Assembly: GCF_988243305.1 (NCBI RefSeq)
Contig: NZ_OZ547136.1
Direction: 5' to 3' (one strand)
DNA length: 64,000 nt
Every line of letters starts with the position of its first letter. The stretch's first letter is position 1. Below are positions 23,458 through 60,926 of the stretch, piece after piece. The notes below the pieces were generated by a model. That model was not told where the DNA came from. It did no database searches and saw nothing but the letters and a program-made list of their open reading frames with translations. The translations under genes and the position numbers were made by a program.

Positions 23458-24975
23458 ATGAATGATATTGAAATCGCTCAGGCTGTCTCGACCATTCTGA
23501 GCAAATTCACCAAAACAACACCGGATGAAGCTCCCGCCACGTCAGAAGCAGCGCGGGTCGAAGGGTTGGATGAAATTGTCGCTAAGGCGTTGGCGCAGCA
23601 CTCTTCCGTGCGCGACGCCAGTGCGATCTCTCAGGTAGCGAAGGTAGCGAATGCTAGCACTGGAGCATTCGATACCATGGATGAGGCGATTTCCGCCGCC
23701 GTCTTGGCACAGGTGCAGTATCGCCACTGTTCTATGCAAGACCGCGCCTCGTTTATCAATGGCATTCGCGATGTCTTCCTGCAGGAAGATGTGCTGTGTG
23801 CCCTTTCCCGTATGGCGGTGGAAGAGACCGGCATGGGGAATTACGAGGACAAACTGATCAAAAACCGCGTCGCAGCGCTGAAAACGCCAGGTATCGAAGA
23901 TCTGACCACCAGCGCGGTTTCCGGAGACGGGGGTTTAACGTTGATCGAATACTCTGCGTTCGGAGTGATTGGTTCGATTACACCAACGACTAACCCGACC
24001 GAAACTATTATCAACAACAGCATAGGCATGCTGGCGGCAGGCAACACTGTGGTGTTCAGTCCACATCCGCGCTCGCGCAAAGTGTCGCTGTACGCGGTTG
24101 AGCTGATCAACAACAAGCTTGCCCAGTTGGGCGCACCGGCGAACATGGTGGTAACGGTGACCAAACCGTCCATCGACAATACCAACGTCCTGATCAACGA
24201 CCCACGTATCAACATGCTGGTAGCGACTGGCGGTCCAGCCATCGTGAAAACCGTGATGTCATCAGGTAAAAAAGCGATTGGTGCAGGCGCAGGTAACCCG
24301 CCAGCTGTGGTAGATGAAACGGCGGATATCGAAAAAGCAGCCCGCGACATCATTAAGGGCTGTAGCTTCGACAACAACCTGCCGTGCGTGGCGGAAAAAG
24401 AGGTGATTGTTGTGAACCAGGTAGCGGACTATCTGATTCACTGCATGAAGAAAAGCGGTGCCTATCTGTTGTGCGATAAGAAGTTAAGTCAACAACTGCA
24501 ATCGTTGGTGCTTAATGAAAAAGGCACTGGGCCGAATACCGCCTTTGTCGGCAAAGATGCGCGCTATATCCTGCAACAACTGGGAATCCAGGTTGGCGAC
24601 GATATCAAAGTCATCTTAATTGAGGCTGAGAAAACACATCCGTTTGTGGTGCATGAGCTGATGATGCCGGTCCTGCCGGTGGTGCGCGTAGACAATGTTG
24701 ATGAAGCCATTGAGCTGGCGGTGAAAGTGGAGCACGGCAATCGTCATACCGCGGTTATGCACTCCACCAACGTCGAAAAGCTGACCAAAATGGCGCGCCT
24801 GATCCAGACCACCATCTTTGTTAAAAATGGTCCCTCTTATGCAGGGCTGGGGGTGGGCGGTGAAGGACATGCCACCTTTACGATTGCCGGACCGACCGGC
24901 GAGGGACTTACGTCAGCGCGTTCGTTTGCACGCCGTCGTCGCTGTGTAATGGTTGAAGCGCTGAATATTCGCTAA
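23458..24975 (+). CDS. CoA-acylating aldehyde dehydrogenase (PduP/EutE-like) with N-terminal encapsulation-peptide-like helix
   Basis: 505-aa ORF; aldehyde dehydrogenase core; amphipathic N-terminus MNDIEIAQAVSTILSKF. Confidence 0.85.
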   Translation: MNDIEIAQAVSTILSKFTKTTPDEAPATSEAARVEGLDEIVAKALAQHSSVRDASAISQVAKVANASTGAFDTMDEAISAAVLAQVQYRHCSMQDRASFINGIRDVFLQEDVLCALSRMAVEETGMGNYEDKLIKNRVAALKTPGIEDLTTSAVSGDGGLTLIEYSAFGVIGSITPTTNPTETIINNSIGMLAAGNTVVFSPHPRSRKVSLYAVELINNKLAQLGAPANMVVTVTKPSIDNTNVLINDPRINMLVATGGPAIVKTVMSSGKKAIGAGAGNPPAVVDETADIEKAARDIIKGCSFDNNLPCVAEKEVIVVNQVADYLIHCMKKSGAYLLCDKKLSQQLQSLVLNEKGTGPNTAFVGKDARYILQQLGIQVGDDIKVILIEAEKTHPFVVHELMMPVLPVVRVDNVDEAIELAVKVEHGNRHTAVMHSTNVEKLTKMARLIQTTIFVKNGPSYAGLGVGGEGHATFTIAGPTGEGLTSARSFARRRRCVMVEALNIR

Positions 24976-30603: not shown

Positions 30604-32406
30604 GTGCGCCGTGACTGGCGCTGTTCTTCAACTGTGGTGGCAGAAGAACGACTAAGAGGTGAAAGTCCTCCACACACCCGGTGAGGGGAAGTGTTAGCGG
30701 AAGGCAAGGGTGTTCATCGCGAGGTGAAATCTGAAGGAAGCTGGATGCAAAATGCTGGCCTGACGAACAGGAAGCGGTTAAGTCGGCGCAGCAGGGTAAG
30801 GTGGCACAAATCACCAAAGCCCGATACTCACACGGAACGCTGTGACGTAAAGCCGACAGGCATAAGCAGGAAAGTCGCGTGAATTACCCCGGGAGATCTG
30901 TCGCCCTGCCAGTGTGCTACCGGCGCCGTGAGGCGCCGGGATGGGGCGGCAGAAGTCAGCCGACGCCGTAGTAGTGCTGCAAAACCGGCAGCATGAAGGG
31001 CCGAACATGATTAACTGTGATTAGGACATCCGAACCCGATGATGATTAATGAAGCACAAGCGCAGGCAACTGCGACCAGCGGCAGAGGAGACGGACAGTA
31101 TCCGTCAGGGCTGCATGATGGCGCTGAAATCAGCACGGCGGCGGGTGGGCAAACGAAAGCGGAAGTGCCGCTGACGATGGAAGCGGTGATAACGAGAGAA
31201 AACCTGATGCTGGCTTATCAGCGCGTGGTGGAAAACAAAGGCACGGCGGGGGTGGATAACCTCAGCGTGGCGGAGTTGAAACCGTGGCTGAAGAAGAACT
31301 GGCGCAGCGTCAGGCAGGCATTGATTGACGGAAACTACCAGCCGCGGGCAATACGCCGGATGGATATCCCGAAGCCGCATGGCGGCGTGAGAACCTCAGG
31401 CATCCCGACGGTGGTGGACAGGCTTATCCAGCAGGCGGTGCAACAGGCACAGCGTTACATACGGGGTGGCAAACGGTGGGTGGTGGATATGGATCTGGAG
31501 AAGTTCTTCGACCGTGTGGATCACAGACTCCTGATGACGCGTCTGGCCAGAACGATAAAGGACAGGCGGGTGCTGTGACTGATACGCCGCTACCTGAAAG
31601 CGGAAATGGTTAAAGACGGGCAAAGGGAGAAACGGCAGGCGGGCATGCTGCAGGGCGGCCCACTGTCGCCGTTACTGTCGAACATCCTGCTGGATGAACT
31701 GGATAAAGAACTGGAGCGTCGTGGACACAGCTTCTGCCGCTACGCAGACGACTGCAACATCTACGTAAGCAGCCGGAAAGCGGGCGACCATCTGCTGAAG
31801 AACATCAGGGCGTTCGTGGAGAACAAACTGAAGGTGAATGAGAAGAAGAGCGCGGTGGCGCGCCCGTGGGATCGGAAGTTCCTCGGGTACAGTGTGACAT
31901 GGCACAAACAGGCGAAGCTGAAGATAGCCCTGACGAGCGTGAACAGGCTGAAGGAGAAAGTCCACAGTCTGACGACGGGAAACCGGAGCAAATCAGTGAA
32001 AGCGACAATCAATGCTCTGACACCAGTGCTGTGTGGATGGATAAGCTACTTCAGGCTGACGGAAGTCAGAGGAGTGCTGGAGGAGCTGGATGGCTGGATC
32101 AAACGGAAACTGCGTTGCTTGTTGTAGCGGCAGTGGAAGAGACCGCTAACCCGGGCAAAGAACCTGCAAAGAGCAGGACTGAGTAAGGACAGGGCAATGA
32201 TCTCTGCGTACAACAACCACGGGCCATGGTGGAACTCAGGGTCAAGCCATATGAATCAGGCGATAAAGAATACATGGTTCAGGAGGCAGGGTCTGATATC
32301 ACTGCTGGAACAGTAGAGGCAGTTCCAGAGTTAACATGAACCGCCGTATGCGGAACCGCACGTACGGTGGTGTGAGAGGACGGCGGGAGTGATCCCGCCT
32401 CCTACT
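30604..32406 (+). mobile_element. Group II intron (bacterial class C-like, inserted just downstream of a terminator hairpin), degenerate
   Basis: 5' end GTGCG at 30604; domain V-like hairpin at ~32341-32372; internal RT/maturase ORF; 3' boundary approximate. Confidence 0.7.
31039..32316 (+). pseudogene. Group II intron reverse transcriptase/maturase with two in-frame stop codons and an internal deletion
   Basis: RT motifs (LEKFFDRVDH, QGGPLSPLLSNILLD, YADD); in-frame TGA at 31576-31578 and TAG at 32125-32127 with homology continuing downstream (GPWWNSGSSHMN); ~30 aa missing after LIQQAV. Confidence 0.75.
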
Positions 32407-32676
32407 CGATCAATTTTAAAACACCTCCTATGTAGGTGGTGATCGTTCATGTGGGGCTTTCTGACAGACTGCCTCGTCATTCCATTCGTATCGCCAGTAA
32501 CTGGCGTTTGTATTGTGGCAGTTCTGGTATACGTTTCCCTGTGTATCTGCACTGGTTCAGCAAGGTTTGAAAAGGAGTATCCCTTGCAAATAACCGAAGC
32601 ATTACTTTCAGAGCCGGAGCTGTTTTTGTTGCTGTGATCCATTTCAATTTTTTCGTGACAAATTATTTATAAATAT

Positions 32677-38324: not shown

Positions 38325-39481
38325 TTATGATTGCTCAGCTTCAGTCTTATCCGATGATTTCTTATTTCTGCGGCTGAAGAACCCGGCAATTAACATATAG
38401 AAGAGAGGAATATAAAAGATTGCCAGTATCGTAGCAGTGATCATCCCTCCAACCACACCAGTACCGATGGCATGTTTACTTCCGGAACTTGCTCCAGTCG
38501 AGACAGCCAGTGGGATAACCCCCATTACAAATGCCAGCGAAGTCATAATTATCGGTCTTAACCTCACTCTCGCCGCTTCAACAGCAGCCTCTTTAATGCT
38601 TAGTCCTTCTTTCTCATGCAATTCACGAGCAAACTCCACGATAAGTATGGCATTTTTCGCAGACAGCCCTATTGTTGTTAATAAACCGACCTGGAAAAAG
38701 ACATCGTTACCAAGGCCGCGCAACAAAGTAGCACAGACAGCCCCCAGGACACCAAGCGGAACAACCAGCATGACCGAGAAAGGAATGCTCCAGCTTTCAT
38801 ACAGTGCAGCCAGACACAGAAAGACGATCAACAGTGAAAGTGCATATAGTGCAGGAGCCTGAGAACCTGAAAGTCGTTCCTCAAAAGACAAACCTGTCCA
38901 GGAAATATGGAAACCTTCGGGAAGTCTTGCCGCAATATCCTCAATTGCTTTCATTGCATCCCCGGAACTGTATCCTGGTGCCGGTTCCCCCAGGATTTCG
39001 ACAGCAGAGATACCATTATATTGCTCCAGTTTTGGTGAGCCATAAATCCATTTGCCTGTTGCAAAAGAGGCAAAGGAAACCATGTCGCCATCACTGTTAC
39101 GGACATACCATTTATCAAAATCCTGCGGTGATATACGTGAGCCGGGTTCGCCCTAAATATAGACTTTTTTCACCCGTCCACGATCGTTAAAATCATTTAC
39201 ATACATCGAACCCCAGGCTGCTGGCATTATGTTGTCGACGTCGCTCATGCTCAGTTTAAGCGCCTGAACTTTCTCGTCATCAATCAGAATCTGGAACTGA
39301 GGCTCATCGTTCATGCCGTTAGGACGAACCATGTTTAACGCTGGACTTTTCGCCGCTTCAGCAAGAAGCTGATTTCGGGCCTGGATCATTTTTTCATGGC
39401 CAGCTCCGCTACGATCCTCGAGGAACAGGTCAAACCCTGTAGCATTCCCCAGTTCTGATACGGCAGGGGGCGTTTTAAAAC
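38325..39481 (-). pseudogene. RND efflux transporter (AcrB/AcrF-like) 3' remnant, frameshifted and truncated by IS2
   Basis: 252-aa ORF matches AcrB C-terminal TM bundle; adjacent 78-aa ORF (39153-39389) matches an internal AcrB segment in another frame; 5' end replaced by IS2 at 39482. Confidence 0.75.
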
Positions 39482-39833
39482 TAGACTAGCCCCCAGAATC
39501 TCCAGACAACCAATATCACTTAAATAAGTGATAGTCTTAATACTAGTTTTTAGACTAGTCATTGGAGAACAGATGATTGATGTCTTAGGACCGGAGAAAC
39601 GCAGACGGCGTACTACACAGGAAAAGATCGCTATTGTTCAGCAGAGCTTTGAGCCGGGAATGACGGTCTCCCTTGTTGCCCGGCAACACGGTGTGGCAGC
39701 CAGCCAGTTATTTCTCTGGCGCAAGCAATACCAGGAGGGAAGTCTTACTGCTGTGGCCGCAGGAGAACAGGTCGTTCCTGCCTCTGAACTTGCTGCTGCC
39801 ATGAAGCAGATTAAAGAACTCCAGCGCCTGCTG
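39482..39833 (+). mobile_element. IS2 left-end fragment with truncated orfA (InsC-like)
   Basis: Terminal sequence TAGACTAGCCCCCAGAATCTCCAGACAACC and InsC N-terminus [26 protein letters not shown]...; homology ends near 39833. Confidence 0.8.
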
Positions 39834-40137
39834 AACAAAACGCCGGATGTCTCCCGGCTCTGAAATTAAGGCTTCGGTTATTTGCACGAAATGTTCCTTT
39901 TCAAACCCTGTTGAATTTTGTTAAGCCGGTGCAGACACACGGAAAACGCACATCAACACCGGACGGTACGATACAAACACCAGTGACTGGCGGGACGAAG
40001 GGAATGACGAATCAGTCAGGAAATGATGACAAACAGTTGGCAGACCAGAGGAGTCAGCAGAAAGATGAGCGGGAGTGTCGCCAGCATCGGGGACAGGGCT
40101 GATTTCCGCAATACCAGCGCCGGCATTGCAACACGTT

Positions 40138-40311
40138 TCATGCTGCTGCTCCTCGTGATTCCTCAATTCGCTGCTGCATCCACTGCTCCACTTCACTTTT
40201 GTACCAGCGGCTGCTGCGCCCCAGTTTGATGGGTTTAGGGAAATGACCTTCACTGATCAGCTTGTAAAACCATTTATCGGTCATACCGGTGAAACTGGTG
40301 ATGTAGTTCAT
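40138..40311 (-). CDS. AlpA-family prophage transcriptional regulator
   Basis: MNYITSFTGMTDKWFYKLISEGHFPKPIKLGRSSRWYKSEVEQW matches AlpA-type HTH pattern. Confidence 0.7.
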   Translation of the reverse strand: MNYITSFTGMTDKWFYKLISEGHFPKPIKLGRSSRWYKSEVEQWMQQRIEESRGAAA

Positions 40312-40439
40312 GTCGATCAGGGGATCGTCGGCACGCAGTAACACGCTGTCGTGGCTTGTTGTGGTCAACATGGTCAGAATGTCCTTTGTGAGATTTATGA
40401 AGTTTGTGCGAATGCAGGGAAAGATGCTGAACCGAGCTT

Positions 40440-41045
40440 TCAGAACGGTCCTGCAGATCCGGGATAGCCGGGATTACCGGCGAGGCAACGGGCTTCCGGA
40501 TCGCACACACCACGACGATCGCGGGCGAAATCACTGAACGCCCATATCAACTCTTTGAGGATGTTTTCACAGTCCGGTGAACGACTGTCCAGCACCACAT
40601 CCCGGGTGATCTGCTTCTGATACTGCTTTGCTTCACCCGGTGACGCGAAGCCCAGTACGTTGCTCCAGGCATCCAGAATCAGCCGGTCCAGTTCAGGGCC
40701 GTCGAAATACTCCTGTCTGACACACAGCACCACGTGGTATTCCGGCTTTTCAGGATGACGGGTCAGGAGCCAGCAGAGATCTCGTCCAGGTGTTGCATTC
40801 ATCAGCGCACTGACGGTTTCGATAAAGTCCATACCGAACCAGATCTTTCTGCTGCTGAAGGTACGGTCATATTCACATGGCAGACGAAGCAGGATCCGTC
40901 GTATCCGGGAGCCGGACTGCTCACGCAGCGCACGCTCAAGGACACCGATGATTTTGTTCTGATAAGACGGCCAGAAGGGTGCCAGGCTATAGTCGAAATA
41001 AGGGATAGCATTCATAAGATATGCTCCGTTATGCGCAGCCCACAA
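40440..41045 (-). CDS. YfjJ/YagK-family (inovirus Gp2-like) prophage protein, paralog 1
   Basis: 201-aa ORF with family motif EYHVVLCV; conserved leader motif upstream. Confidence 0.55.
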   Translation of the reverse strand: MWAAHNGAYLMNAIPYFDYSLAPFWPSYQNKIIGVLERALREQSGSRIRRILLRLPCEYDRTFSSRKIWFGMDFIETVSALMNATPGRDLCWLLTRHPEKPEYHVVLCVRQEYFDGPELDRLILDAWSNVLGFASPGEAKQYQKQITRDVVLDSRSPDCENILKELIWAFSDFARDRRGVCDPEARCLAGNPGYPGSAGPF

Positions 41046-41272
41046 TGCGTCCTGCCCGTGAATGAGCTGACGTGTTATAGCTTGCGGATGGGGTTGATGG
41101 AATAAGTGAAGAACCGAAGCAGAACGGGAAGATCAGGTCACCGACAAGGGACAGAACACCGGATGTGGTTAAGAGTGAATGATCTCCGTTGACTTCAGTT
41201 CACATCATTAAGCAAGGTGGTAAGGTTTTACCGACGGAATGTTTCCAGGACAGGAAGCTCAGGATTTAAGCT

Positions 41273-41839
41273 TCAGAAGTGAGGGTTACGAGGACGCCCT
41301 GCAGCAGGACGTTCAGGAACTTCATTGCAGCCGTAGGCACACAGCCCGTCTTTTTGCTCTTCTTTTGCCAGATAATGCAGGGCACCGCGAATATTATCGA
41401 TGCTTTCAGGATCGTTGTGGCGCACAGGAATGTTGATGTTGTATGTATAATGCGGCTGATATGTACAGCGGTGTGCCGAACCGCTGTTATGTGTAATAGA
41501 CCGCCAGCATTCCGTAATCCGCTCCGCAAAGGGATATATTTTTTTAACCCTCTGACGATCGATCCACAAAACCGCATGCGCATGAAAACCATGATCAGCC
41601 GTCCATTCAATCACCCAGAAGAAACCAACGATATTTTCAAATTGTTCCACCTGCTCCAGCAGCATACGCAACTGCAATTCAAGCCAGCGATGATCAGGTT
41701 GTAAGAAATCGGGCGTATCTTTCCTGTAGAAGAAATCCATCCGTAAGGCCCGCAGGCAGGAATAGCGTGCCATCATTTGATTGATGTGATTGTCAAGTAA
41801 AGCGGTAAAAAACCAGTTTGGTGTGTAAGATTTAGGCAT
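41273..41839 (-). CDS. YfjJ/YagK-family prophage protein, paralog 2
   Basis: 188-aa ORF with HAHAVLWI motif. Confidence 0.55.
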   Translation of the reverse strand: MPKSYTPNWFFTALLDNHINQMMARYSCLRALRMDFFYRKDTPDFLQPDHRWLELQLRMLLEQVEQFENIVGFFWVIEWTADHGFHAHAVLWIDRQRVKKIYPFAERITECWRSITHNSGSAHRCTYQPHYTYNINIPVRHNDPESIDNIRGALHYLAKEEQKDGLCAYGCNEVPERPAAGRPRNPHF

Positions 41840-42670
41840 GTTGATGACTCCTGAAAGTTAATGATGTTTTAAGCTCTGTGAACGAATTAATGCTTTCGCT
41901 CATAACGGTAATAACTTACAGATGGTATTTATCAGGCATGCTGTAGCAGAATGGATACGACGGGTTATTAACGATACGCAGCATTATGCAGAAAGAAATG
42001 GATTATCTGATGGTATTAGCTAAAGAGATGAGATAAACGAGGAGTAAAGAAAATACAGACTCAATAAAACATCACGAAATACTGTAAAATACGAGCTAAA
42101 ACCCCACTACCTGGAGATTAAGAAACATATTGCGACCAATCACATCATAAACTACAAACTTGCTCTCAGTGAGTCTGCAAAAACGTGTACAAGGCCAACA
42201 CATATCTGTAACCTGATAAAATCATACACTCTCATTTAATCTGTTAAAAACAACTCACTTCAAAACATGAGCGTTAACGGGTACACGGTACCAGAATAAA
42301 ATATACCATGGATGGATAATTTTCATTTTGTTTAACATACAAGATAATCAGAAACGAACAAATATAATCAGGAATTCACTCTGTTAATTTCATTGTTTAT
42401 CCTGCGCTGTTAAACATGACGAAATCATGGATACCTTATCAAAGAGTAAACATCCAGTTAATCAGTGATGACAGAAGTATTGATATTTACCAGAATAGTT
42501 AAAACACTTCAGGTCAACAACAATCATCGTTAAGTCAATACAGTTCATTATGGATAATGACTAAAATCAATTGCTGTTTCAGTGAAGACTGATAACAGGT
42601 AGATATTAGCAACAACGTAGTAAAATAACTTATCTGAGTATCGTATGAATTACAGTAGTTATGATTGAAT

Positions 42671-42721
42671 GAAGGAGAAGGTGGAGAAGGTGGAGAAGGT
42701 GGAGAAGGTGGAGAAGGTGGA
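42671..42721. repeat. Short tandem repeat, 9-bp unit GAAGGTGGA x5 plus partial copy
   Basis: Read directly from sequence in AT-rich ORF-free region; explains spurious Pro/Ser-repeat ORF on minus strand. Confidence 0.9.
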
Positions 42722-43157
42722 TACCATGATAATGGTGGCAATGAAGATTAGACAAGGAAGGGAGTAAGTATAATCGGGTGAGGGTCAGAGTAATGGAATG
42801 AGTAAAGATAGAGAGTAAGTAAAAACAGAGTGAATAAAGACAAAGTGAATATAATTATAGTAATAAACCTAAATTAAAAATACTTGCGTATAATGGAAAG
42901 AAATAAGAATTAAGAATAGCGTATGAGTCGTAGTCATGACCTGGCTACAAAAAGTCATTCCATCTGGCTGTCATTCAGACACACTCCCCAAACATTCGAC
43001 TACAAAGTACTAACAGAAAATTAACTGATGTATTATTCTTCTGCCCTGAATGAACATCCGGAAGTATAATCTCCCCTAGCTTCACGTTCACCGGGAAAAA
43101 CGAAGCTATTTACTTTGATGATCGCTGACGAAAAACCGAACAGGCAGTTGCATAATC

Positions 43158-44252
43158 ATGGACAACAGAGAAAAAGAGATACTCAGGATCCTGCGTCACA
43201 ACCCACTGATCCAGCAGAATGAAATTGCTGAGATTTTACAAATCAGTCGGTCGCGTGTTGCTGCACACATTATGGATCTGATGCGCAAAGGTGCGATTAA
43301 AGGGAAAGGCTACATCCTGACAGAACAGGAATACTGTGTTGTTCTTGGGGCGATTAACATGGATATCCGTGGGGTGGCGGATATCCATTATCCACAGAAA
43401 TCCTCCAGTCCGGGCAGTATTTACTGCTCTGCCGGAGGTGTCGGACGCAACATCGCCCATAATCTCGCCCTTCTGGGCCGCAATGTGCATCTGATATCTG
43501 CTGTAGGCAATGATTTTTATGGCGAAACATTACTGGAGCAGACCCGCCTGGCCGGCGTTAATGTCACCAATTGTATTCGACTGAACGGACAAAATACTTC
43601 AACTTATGTCTCCATCGCCGACCTACAGGCAGAAACAGTGATGGCGATTAATGATACCCATATTCTGCAACAACTGACGCCGCAGTTGCTGGACGCCTCA
43701 CGTATGTTAATCCGTCACGCTGGCGTGGTGCTGGCTGACTGTAATCTGACACCTGCCGCCCTTGAATGGATCTTTACGGTCGCTGACGGCATTCCCGTTT
43801 TTATTGATACAGTGTCGAAATTTAAGGCTGTTAATGTAAAAAACTGGCTTCCGCATATCCATACCCTGAAACCCACACAAAAAGAACTGGAGATATTATG
43901 GGGTTCCCCTGTCAACAATGAGACCGATCTACTCACCGCAGTGAACGCACTACATCAGCAGGGTGTGCAACAGATTTTTGTCTGGATGGGAGATGAATCC
44001 GTTTTCTGTAGCCAAAGAGAGGGAGAACAATTTCTGCTCACACCGCCCGTTCATGCCGTTGTGGACAGCTTTGGTGCAGATGATGGCTTTATGGCAGGTC
44101 TGCTTTACAGTTTTCTGGAAGGAAGTAGTTTCCAGGAAAGTGCTCACTTTGCGATGGCATGTGCAGCACTGTCACGTGCCAGCACCAGCATCAATAACCC
44201 AACACTTTCCGTTAATAACGCGCAATATCTGTTAAAAACATCCCGGGGGTAA
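43158..44252 (+). CDS. YeiI-like protein: N-terminal winged-helix HTH fused to PfkB-family sugar/nucleoside kinase
   Basis: 364-aa ORF; HTH (LIQQNEIAEILQISRSRVAAHIMDL) plus PfkB motifs (GGVGRNIAH, DSFGADDGFMAG). Confidence 0.8.
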   Translation: MDNREKEILRILRHNPLIQQNEIAEILQISRSRVAAHIMDLMRKGAIKGKGYILTEQEYCVVLGAINMDIRGVADIHYPQKSSSPGSIYCSAGGVGRNIAHNLALLGRNVHLISAVGNDFYGETLLEQTRLAGVNVTNCIRLNGQNTSTYVSIADLQAETVMAINDTHILQQLTPQLLDASRMLIRHAGVVLADCNLTPAALEWIFTVADGIPVFIDTVSKFKAVNVKNWLPHIHTLKPTQKELEILWGSPVNNETDLLTAVNALHQQGVQQIFVWMGDESVFCSQREGEQFLLTPPVHAVVDSFGADDGFMAGLLYSFLEGSSFQESAHFAMACAALSRASTSINNPTLSVNNAQYLLKTSRG

Positions 44253-44270
44253 CACCCGGGATTGTATTTT

Positions 44271-45521
44271 TTATGCCAGCCCAATGAAAAAACCAGCGAT
44301 AGTCGCACTCATCAGGTTTGACAGGGTGGCCGCCGCCAGTGCACGCATGCCCAGTTGTGCAATTTCAGGTGCACGCTGAGGTGATATGGCTGAAAAGGCA
44401 CCCACCACCACACCAATGGAGCCAAAGTTGGCAAAACCACACAGTGCAAAAGAAATAATTGCGGTGGTTTTCACATCAAGCGTACTGCCTGGCTGTAAAT
44501 AGGGTGAAAGATTGAGATAAGCAACAAATTCGTTAATTGCCAGCTTCTGACCAATCAGACTTCCTGCCAGTGAAGCATCCGCCCAGTCAACGCCCATGAT
44601 CCACGCAAGGGGAGCCAAAATCCAGCCGAAAATGCCCTCAAGGGTAATATTACCATAACCAAACCAGCCTCCGATACCACCGATTATACCGTTAATCAGA
44701 GCAATAATAGCAACAAAGGTCATCACTACCGTTGCAACTCCGACAGCGATTTTCAACCCGGTCATCGCCCCGCTGGCCACTGCTTCAATAACACTTTTGG
44801 GAGGAGTATCAGTGAAAGAAAGATTTTCAAAAGTGACTTTTGATTCTTCTGTGGCCGGACTCAGAATACGGGCAAAAAGGATCCCCCCCGGGATCGCCAT
44901 CAACGACGCCGCCAGCAAATAGTCAATCGGAACCCCCATCCCGGCATAGCCGATCATCATTGAACCGGCAATCGAAGCCATCCCACTGCAGATGACAGTA
45001 AATAATTCATTACGATTCAGACGATTAATAAACGGTTTTACAATTGCCGGGATCTCGTTTTGCCCCAGGAAAATTGTCGTTACTGCCACAAATGACTCAA
45101 CTTTACTTATGTTCAGAGCTTTCTGAAAAATCCCCCCCAGAATACGGATAAGCCCCCCCATCACTCTGATGTAGTACAGCAGACTGATAAGCGCTGTAAC
45201 AAAAATGATGGCAGGAAGTACACGGAAGGCGAAGATAAAACCCGCCCCATCGAACAGTACGTCCATTTTGTCCCCTACCAGAGAGCCAAAAATAAAGGCA
45301 CTGCCCGCATCACTGTAAGACATAATTTTATGTACGCCCAGTGCAGCCTGTTCAACCAGCCATTTCCCCGGGGGGAAATAGAGCATGATCCCACCAATCG
45401 CGATTTGAAGAACCAGTGCAGCTCCTGTGGTACGTAAACTGATACGTTTTTTATTCACTGATAGTAGAAATGCAATTATCAGCAATACTGCCATTCCCAC
45501 TATACTTCTCATGATGTCCAT
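44271..45521 (-). CDS. psuT: NupC-family nucleoside transporter (pseudouridine transporter PsuT-like)
   Basis: 416-aa polytopic membrane ORF of NupC/CNT family; downstream of psuG/psuK on same strand. Confidence 0.75.
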   Translation of the reverse strand: MDIMRSIVGMAVLLIIAFLLSVNKKRISLRTTGAALVLQIAIGGIMLYFPPGKWLVEQAALGVHKIMSYSDAGSAFIFGSLVGDKMDVLFDGAGFIFAFRVLPAIIFVTALISLLYYIRVMGGLIRILGGIFQKALNISKVESFVAVTTIFLGQNEIPAIVKPFINRLNRNELFTVICSGMASIAGSMMIGYAGMGVPIDYLLAASLMAIPGGILFARILSPATEESKVTFENLSFTDTPPKSVIEAVASGAMTGLKIAVGVATVVMTFVAIIALINGIIGGIGGWFGYGNITLEGIFGWILAPLAWIMGVDWADASLAGSLIGQKLAINEFVAYLNLSPYLQPGSTLDVKTTAIISFALCGFANFGSIGVVVGAFSAISPQRAPEIAQLGMRALAAATLSNLMSATIAGFFIGLA

Positions 45522-45604
45522 AATGCTCTCCCCTTATACCTGAACCAGACACGGAATCTGGTTCAGGTAATTTCGGGCGACCTCACACTGCCCGTTCATT
45601 TATA

Positions 45605-46540
45605 TCAGACAATTTGTTGATATTCTTTTGCTATCTCACAGGCCAGAACTGCGTTGTTGAATACCAGCTGAATATTTGATTTCAGACTGTCACCACCGGT
45701 TAATTCTGCCACCCGTGCCAGCAGGAACGGTGTGCTTTCTTTACCGGTAATGCCCTGCACTTCCGCTTCTTTTACGGCCTGGTCAATTGCTGCATTAATT
45801 TTCTCTTCCGCCATGGCGTAAGCTTCCGGAATCGGATTGGCAACAACCAGACCACCGTTCAGGCCGGTTTGCCATTTCACTGCCATCGCGCGGGCAATCT
45901 CTTTTGCACTGTCCAGACGTATACTGACCTCAAACGGACTGGTGCGGCAAAAAAATGCCGGCAATGATCTTGTCTGATAGCCAATTAAAGGTACACCAAA
46001 TGTTTCTAAATATTCCGTGGTTAACCCTAAATCGAGAATGGATTTCGCGCCTGCACAAACCACGGTGACATTAGTATGTGCCAGTTCCTGTAGGTCGGCT
46101 GAAATATCAAAAGTGTGTTCTGCACCGCGATGAACGCCGCCAATTCCTCCTGTGGCAAAAACTTTAATTCCGGCAAGAGCAGCAATAATCATGGTTGAAG
46201 CTACCGTTGTTGCACCATGTTTTCCTTCAGCAATAACGAAAGGTAAATCCCGGCGACTGACTTTGGTAACGTTATGTCCTTCGCGACCCAGTAATTCAAT
46301 CTCATCTTTACTTAACCCGACTTTCATTACACCGCCAATAACGGCAATGGTGGCTGGTACTGCTCCGTGTTTACGTATAGTTTCTTCGACTTCAATAGCC
46401 GTCTGAGCATTCTGAGGAAAAGGCATACCATGTGAGATAATTGTTGACTCGAGAGCAACAACAGGTTTTTTACTGTTAATGGCATCCTGTACTTCCGGTG
46501 AAATTTGCAGTAATTCAGAAGAAATGGTTATTTCAGACAT
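45605..46540 (-). CDS. psuG: Pseudouridine-5'-phosphate glycosidase
   Basis: 311-aa ORF of the PsuG/YeiN family; overlaps psuK stop by 8 nt. Confidence 0.8.
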   Translation of the reverse strand: MSEITISSELLQISPEVQDAINSKKPVVALESTIISHGMPFPQNAQTAIEVEETIRKHGAVPATIAVIGGVMKVGLSKDEIELLGREGHNVTKVSRRDLPFVIAEGKHGATTVASTMIIAALAGIKVFATGGIGGVHRGAEHTFDISADLQELAHTNVTVVCAGAKSILDLGLTTEYLETFGVPLIGYQTRSLPAFFCRTSPFEVSIRLDSAKEIARAMAVKWQTGLNGGLVVANPIPEAYAMAEEKINAAIDQAVKEAEVQGITGKESTPFLLARVAELTGGDSLKSNIQLVFNNAVLACEIAKEYQQIV

Positions 46541-47468
46541 TCTGTTTCTCCACTAAGCTTTTAACGTTAGCAACAGATAATTCAGGATTATTGGTATACT
46601 CACTGGCCAGCGCCATTGATGAACACCCCTGTGCAAATCGAATGGAATCAATAAATGGCATATTATCAACCCAGCAGGAAGCCAGCCCTGCCATCATGGC
46701 ATCCCCTGCCCCCGTAACGTTCACCACCTGTGTTTTTACTGGCGGCGACCAGCCGCTGGCTCCGTACAGTTCGCTGTAATAAACTCCATCCCCCCCCATG
46801 CTGAGCACAAGGCGATTCAGACCATGTGTATGGAACCATACCGCCACTTTTTCAGCATCATTCCGATCTGAAAGCGAAATACCACTGAGTGTTTCTGCTT
46901 CAAGCCGGTTGGGCTTGAGAGTATGAATTTGTGCTAAATGTTCACGAATTTTGACACACTTCCATGCAGATACCGGGTCAACAAATACCGGAACCTTACC
47001 TGCATTATTCAGTAGCCAGACAAGTGTTGACTCACTGATATTACAGTCTGCAACAATAACCTTCGCTCCCTGAATAAAATCAATATGCTGTGATAAAAAC
47101 TCAGCTGAAATATGTTCACTAATCGTCATGTCATTTATTGCCACCAACATTTCACCGGTTTTATCGAGAAGTGATAAATAACTTGAGGTATTTTCTCCAT
47201 TAACAATCAGACATTTATCAACATTAACGCCGGACTGAGTCGTTTGTGCTAATAATGATTGCCCGTAGAAATCATCTCCCACAGCTGACATCAGCCATGA
47301 GTTTTTACCCAGCAGAGCAAGATTATGTGCAATATTACGCCCCACACCTCCGGGCGTGAATTTAATCTTCCCCGGGTTAGAATCAGCATAATTTAAGGAG
47401 GCATACGAATATCCGGCTATATCTATATTGGCAGAGCCAATTGTGATGATGTATTCCTTATCACACAT
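46533..47468 (-). CDS. psuK: Pseudouridine kinase (PfkB family)
   Basis: Start at MCDKEYIITIGSANIDIAGY with RBS CAGGAGA; high similarity to E. coli PsuK as recalled. Confidence 0.8.
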   Translation of the reverse strand: MCDKEYIITIGSANIDIAGYSYASLNYADSNPGKIKFTPGGVGRNIAHNLALLGKNSWLMSAVGDDFYGQSLLAQTTQSGVNVDKCLIVNGENTSSYLSLLDKTGEMLVAINDMTISEHISAEFLSQHIDFIQGAKVIVADCNISESTLVWLLNNAGKVPVFVDPVSAWKCVKIREHLAQIHTLKPNRLEAETLSGISLSDRNDAEKVAVWFHTHGLNRLVLSMGGDGVYYSELYGASGWSPPVKTQVVNVTGAGDAMMAGLASCWVDNMPFIDSIRFAQGCSSMALASEYTNNPELSVANVKSLVEKQNV

Positions 47469-48003
47469 GGCACATCTCCTGACATTTAAAAACACAAAAA
47501 TAATAAATCTGTATTTCTATTCGACCACGCAGATAGAGTTGAACATATATTCAAAATCAAACATGTGTTCACTTTATGCCTGTTTTTAGAAATGTAAATA
47601 CCAGTCCAGAATCAAAAAGTGAAAAATGAAAACAGGATCACAATTTTTATCGTTAATCCATGTTGTCCTTATCCGGTTTTATGGCGTTGCCCTGTTTCAT
47701 CAGGTTATTTGCATGAACGGAATAAATACCGGAGATGACAGGAAACACCATAAGATATTCAGGATGTTACGATGAATTTCATGAGGATCGCTAAAAATGA
47801 GCCTGTTTAATAATTTTATGCAAACACCTTATACCAGGGCTTCCCTTCGGAGATATCAATGACCCCGACAGCGCTCTCACTGCCCTGGTTGCTGGTTTCC
47901 GATATCCTCTTAACTTGCAGGCTCATCCCGCATTTCACTCATGGTGAATAAGGCACATAATGGTCTGGAGTCAATTCTGGCTTACGATTTGTAAATATAA
48001 TAA

Positions 48004-48456
48004 TTAAAGCGTTCTCAAAAGTCTGGCTGGATTACCGGCATACACGCCTTTTACCAGCACGGGCTTTGTAACCACACTACCAGCCCCAATCACTGCTCCA
48101 CTGCAAATTTCTGTTGTTAAAATAGTCGCTCCGCTACCCACTGTTACAGTGTTACCTAATACGATACGTATCCAGCTTTCTGCAGAGGCATCGGGACCAC
48201 CACACTTAAAAAGATCATTAGCAAAAGTTACGCCATGACCGATGAAACAGCCATCACCTAAAATGACGTTCTCACAGATGAAACTGTGGGACTGAATTCG
48301 GCTCCGCTTGCCAATGATGCATCCCTTCTGTATTTCCACAAAGGGACCGATAAAAACATCATCCCCCAGTTCACATTCATAGAGGTTTACTGGCATGACG
48401 ACTTTCACATTTTCACCAAATTTCACATCACGAATGCCGCTGTTAATAACGTGCAT
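48004..48456 (-). CDS. Hexapeptide-repeat (left-handed beta-helix) acetyltransferase
   Basis: 150-aa ORF with repeated [LIV]G-x-x-x-x hexads (IGHGVTFANDL, VGSGATILT, IGAGSVVTK). Confidence 0.75.
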   Translation of the reverse strand: MHVINSGIRDVKFGENVKVVMPVNLYECELGDDVFIGPFVEIQKGCIIGKRSRIQSHSFICENVILGDGCFIGHGVTFANDLFKCGGPDASAESWIRIVLGNTVTVGSGATILTTEICSGAVIGAGSVVTKPVLVKGVYAGNPARLLRTL

Positions 48457-48976
48457 ATCCGTTGTATCCTCCCTCAGGATGATTCTTATCAGAACATTTC
48501 ACCTGTCAGAATATTCCCGGTAATGCGATACAAGATCCTGTCTCACCGGGTACCACGTGTTATTGCCCGTATCCTTTTGCCCGTTACGAGTGTACAACCG
48601 GTTTTGTATTTTGCAATCCAGGCCTGTTACACCAGAGCATCCTCCCACTGCCCCCTCACTGCTCAGTCCGGGATTCAAAGTCATCTTCCAGCACTAAACC
48701 TCATACCAGTTCTGAACCTTCCCTCGCCAGCAGTCAGGATCGTACGGTTCACCACTATCCTCTTCCGTGAATGGCAGTAAGTGAGCAGCACCAAAATAAA
48801 TCGGTACTTCCAATGACAGACAGTGAAAGTGTAAGGGGAAATATGAACATGAGAATGGAAGCAGATAAAAATACCGTTTCATGACTTCAGGGCGATTATC
48901 AGAAAACGAGCTAAGGGCGTCAGCCAACGTCCTGACCGTGGTATACGCTCAGGCACCGGATGCTGTTTTACCGGGT

Positions 48977-49708
48977 TCACCTGCCATCCAGTAGACGCCC
49001 CGGCCCACGACTGCAACCATAATTACGTTGCCCGGAACCGTCATGCTGCTTCGTCTCATATTTCACGAGATAACTGGCTCTGTTCCGGGCTTTCTGCAGC
49101 GCTTCCACATCACCACGCTTGATCCAGAGCACAGCGGCTTCACCTGGCTTTTTGTCTGAAGCCTTCCTGGTATCAGAACATCCACCCGACAAAGGCGTGT
49201 CATCGGAAGAAGGGCGAGCATCAGACGATGTCGGTTTACGGGAAGGCGTCCACCTGGAAAAATGGACCAGGCCATCGCCTTGCCAGGGCTCAAGATGCAG
49301 GGCGCTGCACCATGCCTCCTGGATCATCGTCGCCAGCGAAGACGGTTCGCTGAAATCCCCGAGCGAGCACCAGGTATCTTTGTTGAGCAGTAATATCACG
49401 TGATAATGTTTCCTGCCATACATCTTGCCGAACTCCCGGCACCAGAAATAACGCAGGCTGGTTGCATGCACACGCTGATTGGCCCATCTTTTTTTCCGCT
49501 GGTAAGCCTGAATTTTGGCTTTCAGGGATGCGAAAAAACGGGAAATCACCGCTGAATCCGGATCGGGATCCATGATGGTGACAGGCATATACTCAGGGAA
49601 ACGTAAATCCACCCGGATTAACGAGACGGCACGGTGTTGCACCAGGGCACTGTTGAGAATACTTTCAAAACGGGATAACCAGTAATCATTGTGTATTGGT
49701 TGATTCAT
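48977..49708 (-). CDS. YfjJ/YagK-family prophage protein, paralog 3 (full length)
   Basis: 243-aa ORF with HYHVILLL motif; conserved leader immediately upstream. Confidence 0.6.
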   Translation of the reverse strand: MNQPIHNDYWLSRFESILNSALVQHRAVSLIRVDLRFPEYMPVTIMDPDPDSAVISRFFASLKAKIQAYQRKKRWANQRVHATSLRYFWCREFGKMYGRKHYHVILLLNKDTWCSLGDFSEPSSLATMIQEAWCSALHLEPWQGDGLVHFSRWTPSRKPTSSDARPSSDDTPLSGGCSDTRKASDKKPGEAAVLWIKRGDVEALQKARNRASYLVKYETKQHDGSGQRNYGCSRGPGRLLDGR

Positions 49709-50377
49709 GATGAGAGATCTCCGTTGATTTGGATTGACTTCACATCATTAATCACTGCGGTAAAACTTTACGGCATCCCGCCATTGAGCAACGCCAATGG
49801 CTCCTGATTAAAACAGAATGAATCGTCCCGTAACGAAAAGATAATCCTGCACACGACAGCAAAACGTAAAACAACAGCATGAATGAGCTAAATGTCTAAA
49901 GAAAAACTGCCTTTTCACATTATTTTTCAGCGAGTAATCATACCAGCATCCCTAACATACGAAATCGCATCGTGATCGATCGCTGATTCGCCGAACAACT
50001 GATCGAATACACCGGAATCTGCACTAACATCCTGATGGGTAACGGAAGACTAAAAAACCAGTGTTCTATTGATTGCACGGAATGCCTGTGCGCTGGCCTG
50101 ACCAGTAAGCACAATTCTACGAGTAGTAAGATATCTACTCCAAAACCATGCGCAGTAGCCACCATATGTTGCCAGGGTGAAAAATAAGCTCAGAGCTATA
50201 GGGGAGTAATTCCCGTTAATGTCATCGCCGTACCTCAATCAGCTCACAAACTGGCTGAAACGTTAAGCTGAGGCCTTTATTCTTCAGATGTATTTTCCGG
50301 TTTACCTGTAAATTATCTTCTGATATTTATCACATTAGTAATTGTGCTGATTATCTACATACTTCAAGGTCTGAAAT

Positions 50378-59597: not shown

Positions 59598-60926
59598 CTG
59601 ATGAATCCCCTAATGATTTTTATCAAAATCATTAAGTTAAGGTAGATACACATCTTGTCATATGATCAAATGGTTTCGCCAAAAATCAATAATCAGACAA
59701 CAAGATGTGCGAACTCGATATTTTACACGACTCTCTTTACCAATTCTGCCCCGAATTACACTTAAAACGACTCAACAGCTTAACGTTGGCTTGCCACGCA
59801 TTACTTGACTGTAAAACTCTCACTCTTACCGAACTTGGCCGTAACCTGCCAACCAAAGCGAGAACAAAACATAACATCAAACGAATCGACCGATTGTTAG
59901 GTAATCGTCACCTCCACAAAGAGCGACTCGCTGTATACCGTTGGCATGCTAGCTTTATCTGTTCGGGCAATACGATGCCCATTGTACTTGTTGACTGGTC
60001 TGATATTCGTGAGCAAAAACGACTTATGGTATTGCGAGCTTCAGTCGCACTACACGGTCGTTCTGTTACTCTTTATGAGAAAGCGTTCCCGCTTTCAGAG
60101 CAATGTTCAAAGAAAGCTCATGACCAATTTCTAGCCGACCTTGCGAGCATTCTACCGAGTAACACCACACCGCTCATTGTCAGTGATGCTGGCTTTAAAG
60201 TGCCATGGTATAAATCCGTTGAGAAGCTGGGTTGGTACTGGTTAAGTCGAGTAAGAGGAAAAGTACAATATGCAGACCTAGGAGCGGAAAACTGGAAACC
60301 TATCAGCAACTTACATGATATGTCATCTAGTCACTCAAAGACTTTAGGCTATAAGAGGCTGACTAAAAGCAATCCAATCTCATGCCAAATTCTATTGTAT
60401 AAATCTCGCTCTAAAGGCCGAAAAAATCAGCGCTCGACACGGACTCATTGTCACCACCCGTCACCTAAAATCTACTCAGCGTCGGCAAAGGAGCCATGGG
60501 TTCTAGCAACTAACTTACCTGTTGAAATTCGAACACCCAAACAACTTGTTAATATCTATTCGAAGCGAATGCAGATTGAAGAAACCTTCCGAGACTTGAA
60601 AAGTCCTGCCTACGGACTAGGCCTACGCCATAGCCGAACGAGCAGCTCAGAGCGTTTTGATATCATGCTGCTAATCGCCCTGATGCTTCAACTAACATGT
60701 TGGCTTGCGGGCGTTCATGCTCAGAAACAAGGTTGGGACAAGCACTTCCAGGCTAACACAGTCAGAAATCGAAACGTACTCTCAACAGTTCGCTTAGGCA
60801 TGGAAGTTTTGCGGCATTCTGGCTACACAATAACAAGGGAAGACTTACTCGTGGCTGCAACCCTACTAGCTCAAAATTTATTCACACATGGTTACGCTTT
60901 GGGGAAATTATGAGGGGATCTCCTTA
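59598..60926 (+). mobile_element. IS10 (Tn10 flanking copy), outside end at 59598
   Basis: Outside-end sequence CTGATGAATCCCCTAATGATTTTTATCAAAATCATTAAG; 1329-bp span; inner terminus reads GGGGATCTCC rather than the inside end as I recall it. Confidence 0.85.
59705..60913 (+). CDS. IS10 transposase
   Basis: 402-aa ORF matching IS10 transposase (MCELDILHDSLYQFCPELHLKRLNSL...). Confidence 0.9.
   Translation: MCELDILHDSLYQFCPELHLKRLNSLTLACHALLDCKTLTLTELGRNLPTKARTKHNIKRIDRLLGNRHLHKERLAVYRWHASFICSGNTMPIVLVDWSDIREQKRLMVLRASVALHGRSVTLYEKAFPLSEQCSKKAHDQFLADLASILPSNTTPLIVSDAGFKVPWYKSVEKLGWYWLSRVRGKVQYADLGAENWKPISNLHDMSSSHSKTLGYKRLTKSNPISCQILLYKSRSKGRKNQRSTRTHCHHPSPKIYSASAKEPWVLATNLPVEIRTPKQLVNIYSKRMQIEETFRDLKSPAYGLGLRHSRTSSSERFDIMLLIALMLQLTCWLAGVHAQKQGWDKHFQANTVRNRNVLSTVRLGMEVLRHSGYTITREDLLVAATLLAQNLFTHGYALGKL

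Follow-up and report, generated by a model that had tools for sequence, protein, structure and literature searches.

A recurring sequence element stands upstream of genes of the YagK/YfjJ family (Pfam PF11726, YagK_YfjJ_C; named 'inovirus Gp2 family protein' by NCBI) in a stretch of 64,000 nucleotides (nt) of contig NZ_OZ547136.1 (assembly GCF_988243305.1), referred to here as the window. The region concerned is identical to a chromosomal island of Escherichia coli M217 and many other isolates. It contains three paralogs of the family and an alpA-like gene, all on the minus strand, and two full copies of the element, copy A before paralog 1 and copy B before paralog 3. The E. coli motif is a version of a previously undescribed cassette that precedes nickase-like and alpA genes in the islands of many enterobacteria, and the pair formed by copies A and B is the local form of a family-wide cis element present in two copies per module. 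With somewhat better than even confidence, the cassette is read here as a promoter-proximal control element of two transcription or translation units in an island-end module consisting of a Gp2/YagK-like HUH gene, paralog 1 and alpA. This promoter-and-leader reading is suggested by the fixed distance of the cassette before gene starts, the Shine-Dalgarno sequence (SD) inside it and the presence of one copy per gene.

Two copies of the motif in the window

The original prediction, made from the letters of the window, held that a motif of about 45 nt recurs upstream of paralogs 1 and 3. Both copies are there, as repeat blocks with exact shared words, and their placement 'upstream' is correct because all three genes lie on the minus strand. 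The copies align in two gapless blocks that are offset by a 5-nt insertion or deletion. Block 1 covers 43 nt with 74% identity (41189-41231 versus 49729-49771) and block 2 covers 32 nt with 75% identity (41176-41207 versus 49711-49742). Read in the sense of the genes, both copies contain the dyad (C)GTAA-N4-TTACC, an exact 13-mer (TTAATGATGTGAA, the box) 7 nt past it and, after a further 6 or 11 nt, an exact 12-mer (TCAACGGAGATC). The 64 kb contain exactly two instances each of the 13-mer TTCACATCATTAA and the 12-mer GATCTCCGTTGA, and the composite TTCACATCATTAA-N7-GGTAA-N3-TTTAC, found twice in the window, did not occur in 100 shuffles.

The prediction further confined the leader motif to two of the three paralogs. 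Full copies do stand only before paralogs 1 and 3, but paralog 2 carries part of the motif, namely the dyad and an inverted TTAATGATGT. Where 0.15 exact matches would be expected, the window has five of the latter sequence; two, at 24347 and 61914, are unrelated and were dismissed as chance matches in a coding region and at the start of Tn10 tetR (ATTAATGATGTCTAGA). Twelve nucleotides (TTTTAGATCTGA) that follow the dyad directly in the E. coli islands L004 and L005 (2385-2400) are missing from the paralog 2 leader of the window (near 41905), and thus the spacing rule of the cassette fails for paralog 2. The E. coli copies of the region upstream of paralog 2 are 93% identical, which is too alike for footprinting.

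Both types of copy are widespread in E. coli: copy B was found in 1,894 of 5,426 complete genomes and copy A in 1,876. Six E. coli variants of copy B are near-invariant from TTGCT to the ATG, while the proteins encoded behind them are 62-100% identical to paralog 3 and the 100 nt upstream of TTGCT contain many substitutions and insertions or deletions. The persistence of copy B while both the proteins and the upstream flank diverge shows that the motif itself is under purifying selection. Similarly, copy A forms a conserved island of about 75 nt in six E. coli variants, followed by 170 nt that are strongly divergent, and it is the best-conserved part of its intergenic region across the 1,876 genomes, sampled down to 82% identity.

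The skeleton in other genera

The comparison beyond E. coli covered 80 loci with relatives from other species and five from metagenomes, 85 in total. Upstream of many Gp2-like genes a common skeleton was found, consisting of (G)GTA, six positions that are mostly T, TAC, exactly 17 nt, TGA(A/C/G), a purine-rich GGAG and the start codon. In Proteus and Providencia, TAC is replaced by TAAC. The skeleton of other genera differs in sequence from the E. coli motif. A loose form of the pattern lies 47-54 nt before the Gp2 ATG at 24 of the 85 loci (searched over 60 nt, with 0.03 matches expected per search interval). An alpA-like gene lies directly downstream of the Gp2-like gene at 38 loci, and 24 of 36 Gp2-alpA spacers hold a second copy. 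With a stricter pattern, 61 matches were obtained in 885 kb. Of these, 41 lie immediately before Gp2 or alpA, in stretches that make up approximately 2% of the sequence, and several of the remaining matches are further genuine copies. Even where alpA lies upstream of Gp2 (L010, L024 and L028) it has a copy of its own, and L010 has three copies. Genera without paralog 1 generally carry a second copy where copy A stands in E. coli. Copies A and B of E. coli are special in having the spacer, the box and the SD block in common as well, and are much more alike in the 17-nt spacer than the copy pairs of most other genera.

The original prediction would have failed had the motif been absent upstream of other family members, or had it simply belonged to a coding segment that was duplicated. 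The outcome favours the prediction, in a modified form. The exact sequence is indeed absent upstream of yfjJ and yagK of E. coli K-12, whose loci give no match, but the same architecture precedes many members elsewhere. Nor does the motif belong to duplicated coding sequence. The two K-12 genes share an upstream box of their own, TTGATAGGTAATATATAGGTACAT and TTGGATAGGTATTATATAATGGCAT (yfjJ, L002 5460-5500; yagK, L003 7130-7170).

The adjacency of a Gp2-like gene and alpA is also found at the end of the transfer-messenger RNA (tmRNA) islands of Pseudomonas, reported without functional data (bioRxiv 10.1101/2024.08.29.610337). The sole record labelled as phage with a relative of paralog 3 is 'Escherichia phage ECO111 5-P' (OR844780.1, 4,468 bp; L094), an unverified, low-coverage contig; the cassette before its gene reads TTTTTTAC-N17-TGAA, with a CCGTATG/CATACGG hairpin and GGAG.

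Two features of the Gp2-alpA spacers may be recorded here. At L037 and L050 the codons of the conserved Gp2-like C-terminus FGCSR (TTCGGCTGTAGCCGG TAG) form a palindrome, directly followed by the T-run of the second copy, so that a protein motif and a terminator-like hairpin use the same bases. At L011, L016-L023, L057, L062 and L069-L072, the ribosome site of alpA lies in an anti-SD/SD hairpin (TCTCCC..GGGAGA or CTGTCTT..AAGACAG). The same spacers contain short open reading frames (ORFs) that have an SD of their own and start right past the second motif copy, some of which cross the anti-SD in what looks like translational coupling.

Structure of the leaders

Around the start codon of paralog 3, CATCATGAATC is complementary to GATTAATGATG of copy B. 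The predicted unpaired probability of the SD in copy B is 0.04, compared with 0.44 in shuffles, only 1.5% of which reach 0.04. Leaders with hairpins (z-scores of -2.2 to -3.0) were found in Hafnia, Siccibacter, Rosenbergiella, Brenneria and Providencia (L050); these hairpins enclose the TGAA box, and their 3' arm ends in the SD. The stems vary from genus to genus yet stay complementary: CAGTAATT/AATTACTG, CCACGGG/CCCGTGG, CTTGGTTAT/ATAACCAAG and CCGTATG/CATACGG. Pairing of the SD exceeds chance in E. coli copy B, L013 and L017, but not in the Proteus group or in most second copies.

The 3' half of copy A can pair with a segment 55-95 nt downstream, where 86% of cells are paired against 30-47% when the segments are slid. 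The hairpin of copy A has one compensatory pair in six sequences and did not exceed its shuffle control. A pairing of the copy A box with the ribosome site of paralog 1, proposed by RNAalifold, was rejected, since shuffling of the box leaves the accessibility of the site unchanged. A search of Rfam 15 gave no match at gathering score in the region, and permissive filters returned only chance-level hits (E 0.4-3.8).

The three proteins

That the window contains three family paralogs, as originally proposed, is borne out as far as their relatedness goes, but the Pfam assignment is solid for paralog 3 alone. The gathering cut-off of 25.8 bits is exceeded by paralog 3 alone (123.7 bits, E 9e-36), the scores being 22.8 bits for paralog 2 and 12.3 bits (E 0.16) for paralog 1. 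A subfamily profile aligned with hhalign recovers paralogs 2 and 1 with 93.3% and 91.6% probability, respectively. In addition, P0148, which is 36% identical to paralog 1, has a Pfam score of 41.8 bits and serves as a passing intermediate. Paralogs 1 and 2 are not recognizable against each other by BLAST, and the proteins behind copies A and B are likewise beyond BLAST recognition (E 0.09).

The YagK/YfjJ family looks like an HUH nickase. Paralog 3 is structurally similar to solved HUH nickase domains and has both the HUH motif (HYHVILLL) and the tyrosine motif (YLVKYETK); its family-invariant residues are H101 and H103 of HUH and Y213, K216 and K220 of YxxK(Y). An H-x-H/V-L motif had been ascribed to each paralog. 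It is found in paralogs 2 and 3, the former keeping HUH and YLxK (HAHAVLWI and YLAKEEQK), but not in paralog 1, in which the first histidine is gone (EYHVVLCV) and no catalytic tyrosine is present (DFARDRR). Paralog 1 is a degenerate member of the family, and among the three only paralog 3 is a full look-alike of HUH-type nickases. Relatives of paralog 1 outside E. coli are almost absent among 1.84 billion representatives. The extent of this gene also needs amendment: it had been placed at 40440-41045, but its start is most likely the ATG at 41015 (the RefSeq call, with the SD GGAG) and not the TTG at 41045.

The cassette as a probable promoter and leader

The original prediction had offered a shared promoter or operator, or a 5' untranslated region, as the role of the motif. 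This is favoured by the fixed distance, by the SD of paralog 3 within the motif, by conservation and by a TAnnnT hexamer at the position of the yagK TATAAT. Nearly all copies have the hexamer within the 5' half of the dyad, read on the sense strand, as TAAAGT, TATTTT, TAATTT, TACTTT or TAAGTT. For yagK of K-12, genomic SELEX (systematic evolution of ligands by exponential enrichment) with RpoD holoenzyme gave the promoter TTTAGA-16-TATAAT (PMC3946193). This mapped promoter falls in the GGTA(A/T)TATATA box common to yagK and yfjJ, at a position equivalent to GTA-N6-TAC. A promoter and the start of an mRNA most likely lie within the motif.

By analogy with yagK, TAnnnT would act as the -10 element, transcription would start just past TAC, and the mRNA would begin with the rest of the motif, a leader of approximately 50 nt. 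Being palindromic, the dyad may double as an operator for the AlpA-like protein, the kind of control that the original prediction gave as an example, or for paralog 1 or the HUH protein. The box and the sequence following it could then fold back on the ribosome-binding and start region, with the SD and start codon as the partner in copy B and the segment 55-95 nt downstream as the partner in copy A, and translation would be held low until the leader structure opens. Co-occurrence does not tell AlpA and the Gp2-like protein apart as the possible partner of the motif. In the papers searched, no consensus binding site turned up for this family of AlpA-like proteins, and the literature search yielded nothing relevant on the sequence of the motif or on the function of YfjJ, YagK or Gp2-like proteins of islands.

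Several observations weigh against the promoter-and-leader reading. A scan with the sigma-70 consensus gave no promoter at copy A or B. No -35 element is conserved across the family; the conserved TTGCT is confined to E. coli copy B, at a spacing of 15 or 17 bp. In copy A the hexamer is TAAAAC or TAAAAA, whose position 6 is not T, and copy A retains TCAACGGAGATC with no start codon behind it. Second copies directly follow either the stop codon of Gp2 or a hairpin rich in GC, and a promoter with a leader does not account for the invariant 17-nt spacing. As for the leader, hairpins do not form in every case: z-scores are near 0 in the Proteus group and in most second copies (with a 50-nt cut), and the E. 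coli motif regions fold with z-scores of only -0.4 to -1.0. Folding shows no asymmetry between sense and antisense strands, and thus does not establish RNA over DNA as the level at which the element acts.

Other promoter classes were considered as well. Matches by eye to sigma-28 (TAAAGTTT-N11-GCCGATAA), sigma-54 and sigma-E fail on the second element or the spacing. A promoter on the antisense strand (TTCAnA-16/17-TAAAAA), although possible, was set aside, as its -10 mostly has no T at position 6, whereas the sense hexamer does.

Alternative readings

The invariant spacing and the nature of paralog 3 invite a reading at the DNA level, in which the cassette is the target of the HUH protein and serves as an origin, as a site like oriT or as a nick site. 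Binding of the dyad or box by paralog 3 would lead to a cut in one strand, for example at the junction of the T-run and AC, and the cut would start rolling-circle replication or mobilization of the excised island, with a promoter overlapping the origin. The retention of HUH and YxxK(Y) as family invariants fits such a role, and the rigid 17-bp spacing, the strand-symmetric hairpins and the inverted TTAATGATGT before paralog 2 are consistent with recognition of DNA. Promoters overlap origins in many Rep-encoding replicons. Further, the end of the box (...TTTTAC or ...TATTAC) resembles the nick site of the Rep proteins of CRESS (circular Rep-encoding single-stranded)-DNA viruses, TAATATT/AC, and the TTAC cleavage site of IS608, a resemblance of use as a lead only. 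An origin is normally single per element, and modules here have two or three copies, each tied to a gene start, that of alpA included where alpA precedes Gp2. The motif also supplies, with its GGAG, the SD of the Gp2-like gene or, in several second copies of other genera, that of a short ORF upstream; the loop of the dyad measures just 4 nt, and TAC lies in a stem instead of a hairpin loop. A search for small replicons of plasmids or phages based on a Gp2-like protein found none, the plasmid matches being on plasmids of 31-480 kb and the larger records being chromosome-sized. On balance a role as HUH target, the main rival of the promoter reading, seems unlikely. In its fuller form, with an origin- or oriT-like site for the YagK/YfjJ nickase embedded in the promoter and with the very common islands of enterobacteria and Pseudomonas carrying a small rolling-circle or mobilization module beside their excisionase gene, we regard it as distinctly unlikely. 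Under it, direct copies flanking the nickase gene could serve as start and stop sites; in the window, 7.6 kb of cargo lie between copies A and B.

The absence of a conserved -35 and the leaders that are more structured than shuffles in several genera would also suit an element that acts only as RNA within a longer transcript, where a hairpin with a U-run partly terminates or processes the message and the leader couples translation. Hafnia-like second copies agree with this, since they have a GC-rich hairpin directly before the T-run (for example CCGGCC..GGGCCGG TAATTTTTT) and are followed by short ORFs with their own SD, with the SD of alpA in an anti-SD hairpin. Such a role, conceivable for the second copies, is nevertheless unlikely: the conserved letters G-T-A and T-A-C flank the T-run and go beyond a mere T-run, many first copies have no hairpin before it, a terminator scan found nothing at copy A or B, and in E. 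coli copy B it is TTGCT that is conserved and not the upstream hairpin arm. Copy A could, in turn, be a relic with no present function, left over from the leader of a Gp2 gene that was duplicated in tandem and turned into paralog 1. A degenerate paralog 1 directly behind a Gp2-type gene, an SD-like block with no start codon behind it and a 17-nt spacer far more alike between A and B than in the copy pairs of most genera would all be expected of such a history. The 13-mer and 12-mer are identical, however, between genes whose proteins have diverged past BLAST recognition, copy A outlasts the rest of its intergenic region in the E. coli genomes, and a second copy is usual at this position where paralog 1 does not exist. 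Conservation of the motif thus makes a functionless relic of duplication very improbable.

Genomic setting

The coordinates of the motif copies, their parts and the genes of the module are collected in Table 1.

Table 1. Motif copies, their parts and the genes of the module in the window.
Feature	Position	Strand	Remarks
Motif copy A	41176-41240	-	33-97 nt past the paralog 2 stop; 166 nt before the paralog 1 ATG (41015)
Copy A sub-blocks	dyad 41218-41233; box 41199-41211; SD-like block 41181-41192	-	
Copy A downstream partner CCGTTCTGCTTCGGTTCTTCAC	41106..41127	-	can pair with GTGAACTGAAGTCAACGG of copy A; suggestive only
Motif copy B	49711-49775	-	leader cassette of paralog 3; dyad, TTAATGATGTGAA box, SD block
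Copy B -35-like TTGCTC	49786..49791	-	putative; spacing of 15 nt to TAAAGT or 17 nt to AAGTTT
Copy B dyad box GTAAAGTTTTACCG	49758..49771	-	-10-like TAAAGT at 49765-49770, by analogy with the yagK promoter
Copy B box TTAATGATGTGAA	49739..49751	-	TGAA begins exactly 17 nt after TAC
Copy B block TCAACGGAGATC	49716..49727	-	GGAG is the SD of paralog 3; ATG 10 nt on
Dyad box GTAAGTTATTACCG upstream of paralog 2	41906..41919	-	third and last exact GTAA-N4-TTACCG in the window
Inverted TTAATGATGT in the paralog 2 leader	41858..41867	+	exact match
alpA-like gene	40138..40371	-	Pfam Phage_AlpA; RefSeq helix-turn-helix regulator; last gene of the module
Paralog 1	40440..41015	-	RefSeq: hypothetical protein
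Paralog 2	41273..41839	-	RefSeq: YagK/YfjJ domain-containing protein; divergent member
Paralog 3	48977..49708	-	RefSeq: inovirus Gp2 family protein; intact YagK/YfjJ

Other E. coli strains have a simple order, copy B-paralog 3-copy A-paralog 1-alpA (L006 and L008), or an alternative one, paralog 2-copy A-paralog 1-alpA (L004, L005 and L007). Compared with L006, the window contains an insertion of 7,598 bp (41259-48856) between paralog 3 and copy A, which brings in paralog 2, backbone and cargo for the utilization of pseudouridine. The cargo genes encode a sugar kinase, a NupC-type transporter, a pseudouridine glycosidase and kinase and an acyltransferase. The edges of the insertion are marked by a 6-bp direct repeat, GGAAGC, at 41253-41258 and 48857-48862. 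The segment 39820-42909 of the window matches the paralog 2-type islands L004 and L005.

Just past alpA, at 38325-39863, lie a transposase fragment and a truncated pseudogene of a resistance-nodulation-division (RND) efflux permease, and the end of the island is therefore rearranged there; no integrase adjoins alpA. In the gene-free 1.3 kb upstream of paralog 2, a 9-nt unit (GGAGAAGGT) is repeated in tandem five to six times at 42665-42736 and encodes a PPS repeat in a small minus-strand ORF. Farther away, a group II intron (30713-32410; Rfam models for D1-D4 and domain V-VI) lies between grpO and grpP of a glycyl-radical propanediol microcompartment cluster, its maturase and reverse transcriptase being two separate short coding sequences in RefSeq. 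The segment 59643-64000 contains IS10 RNA-OUT (59643-59712), an IS10-type transposase ORF and the divergent tetR/tetA region of Tn10.

Significance

Pairs of YagK/YfjJ and alpA genes end very many genomic islands, among them the CP4-type islands of E. coli and the tmRNA islands of Pseudomonas. A rigid cis element before both genes across genera offers a handle, as it shows where a transcription start, a protein that binds an operator and possibly a nick site should be sought, and the skeleton provides a sequence signature by which such modules can be found. If the element is only a promoter with a leader, its annotation is useful, though of an ordinary kind. If it is the target of the nickase, the replication or movement of excised islands would have an explanation.

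Comparison with known systems

HUH Rep proteins have origins that can overlap the promoter of rep, among them the stem-loop with TAATATT/AC of geminiviruses and circoviruses, the double-strand origin of pMV158 and the gene II origin of phage f1. The cassette resembles these in being a conserved cis element directly upstream of a gene for an HUH-fold protein and in combining a dyad or hairpin with a T-rich ...TTAC box. It differs in having several copies tied to gene starts, in the position of TAC outside the loop and in the lack of visible iterons.

Fold-back inhibition reportedly operates in the transposase mRNAs of IS10 and IS50, in which the leader is said to hide its own ribosome-binding site. 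The likeness lies in sequence upstream of the SD and start that is complementary to them, the SD of copy B being predicted to be 96% paired. The register of pairing in the present leaders, however, varies by genus, with the SD engaged in some and the start codon in the Proteus group, and many second copies show no pairing.

AlpA of Pseudomonas aeruginosa binds an element, GGGACG, between the -35 and -10 of its target promoter (PMC9371919). The regulator has the same name and its site also lies inside a promoter, but that protein is a larger, Q-like antiterminator, whereas the alpA-like product here is a 77-amino acid protein of the Pfam Phage_AlpA/excisionase type, and the sequence of the binding element is not in the motif. 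An identity of the two sites was therefore rejected, as both the protein family and the sequence are different.

By mode of action, rep promoters with an overlapping origin and self-masking leaders such as those of IS10 and IS50 come nearest to the cassette. The closest documented counterpart is the yagK promoter. Its sequence is different and its leader is longer (about 185 nt), and yagK lacks the TAC-N17-TGA skeleton, the TTAATGATGTGAA box and a second copy before alpA. The gene nevertheless belongs to the same family, and its promoter lies in a subfamily-wide upstream box in which GGTA is followed by an A/T-rich stretch, the stretch that forms the -10 in yagK.

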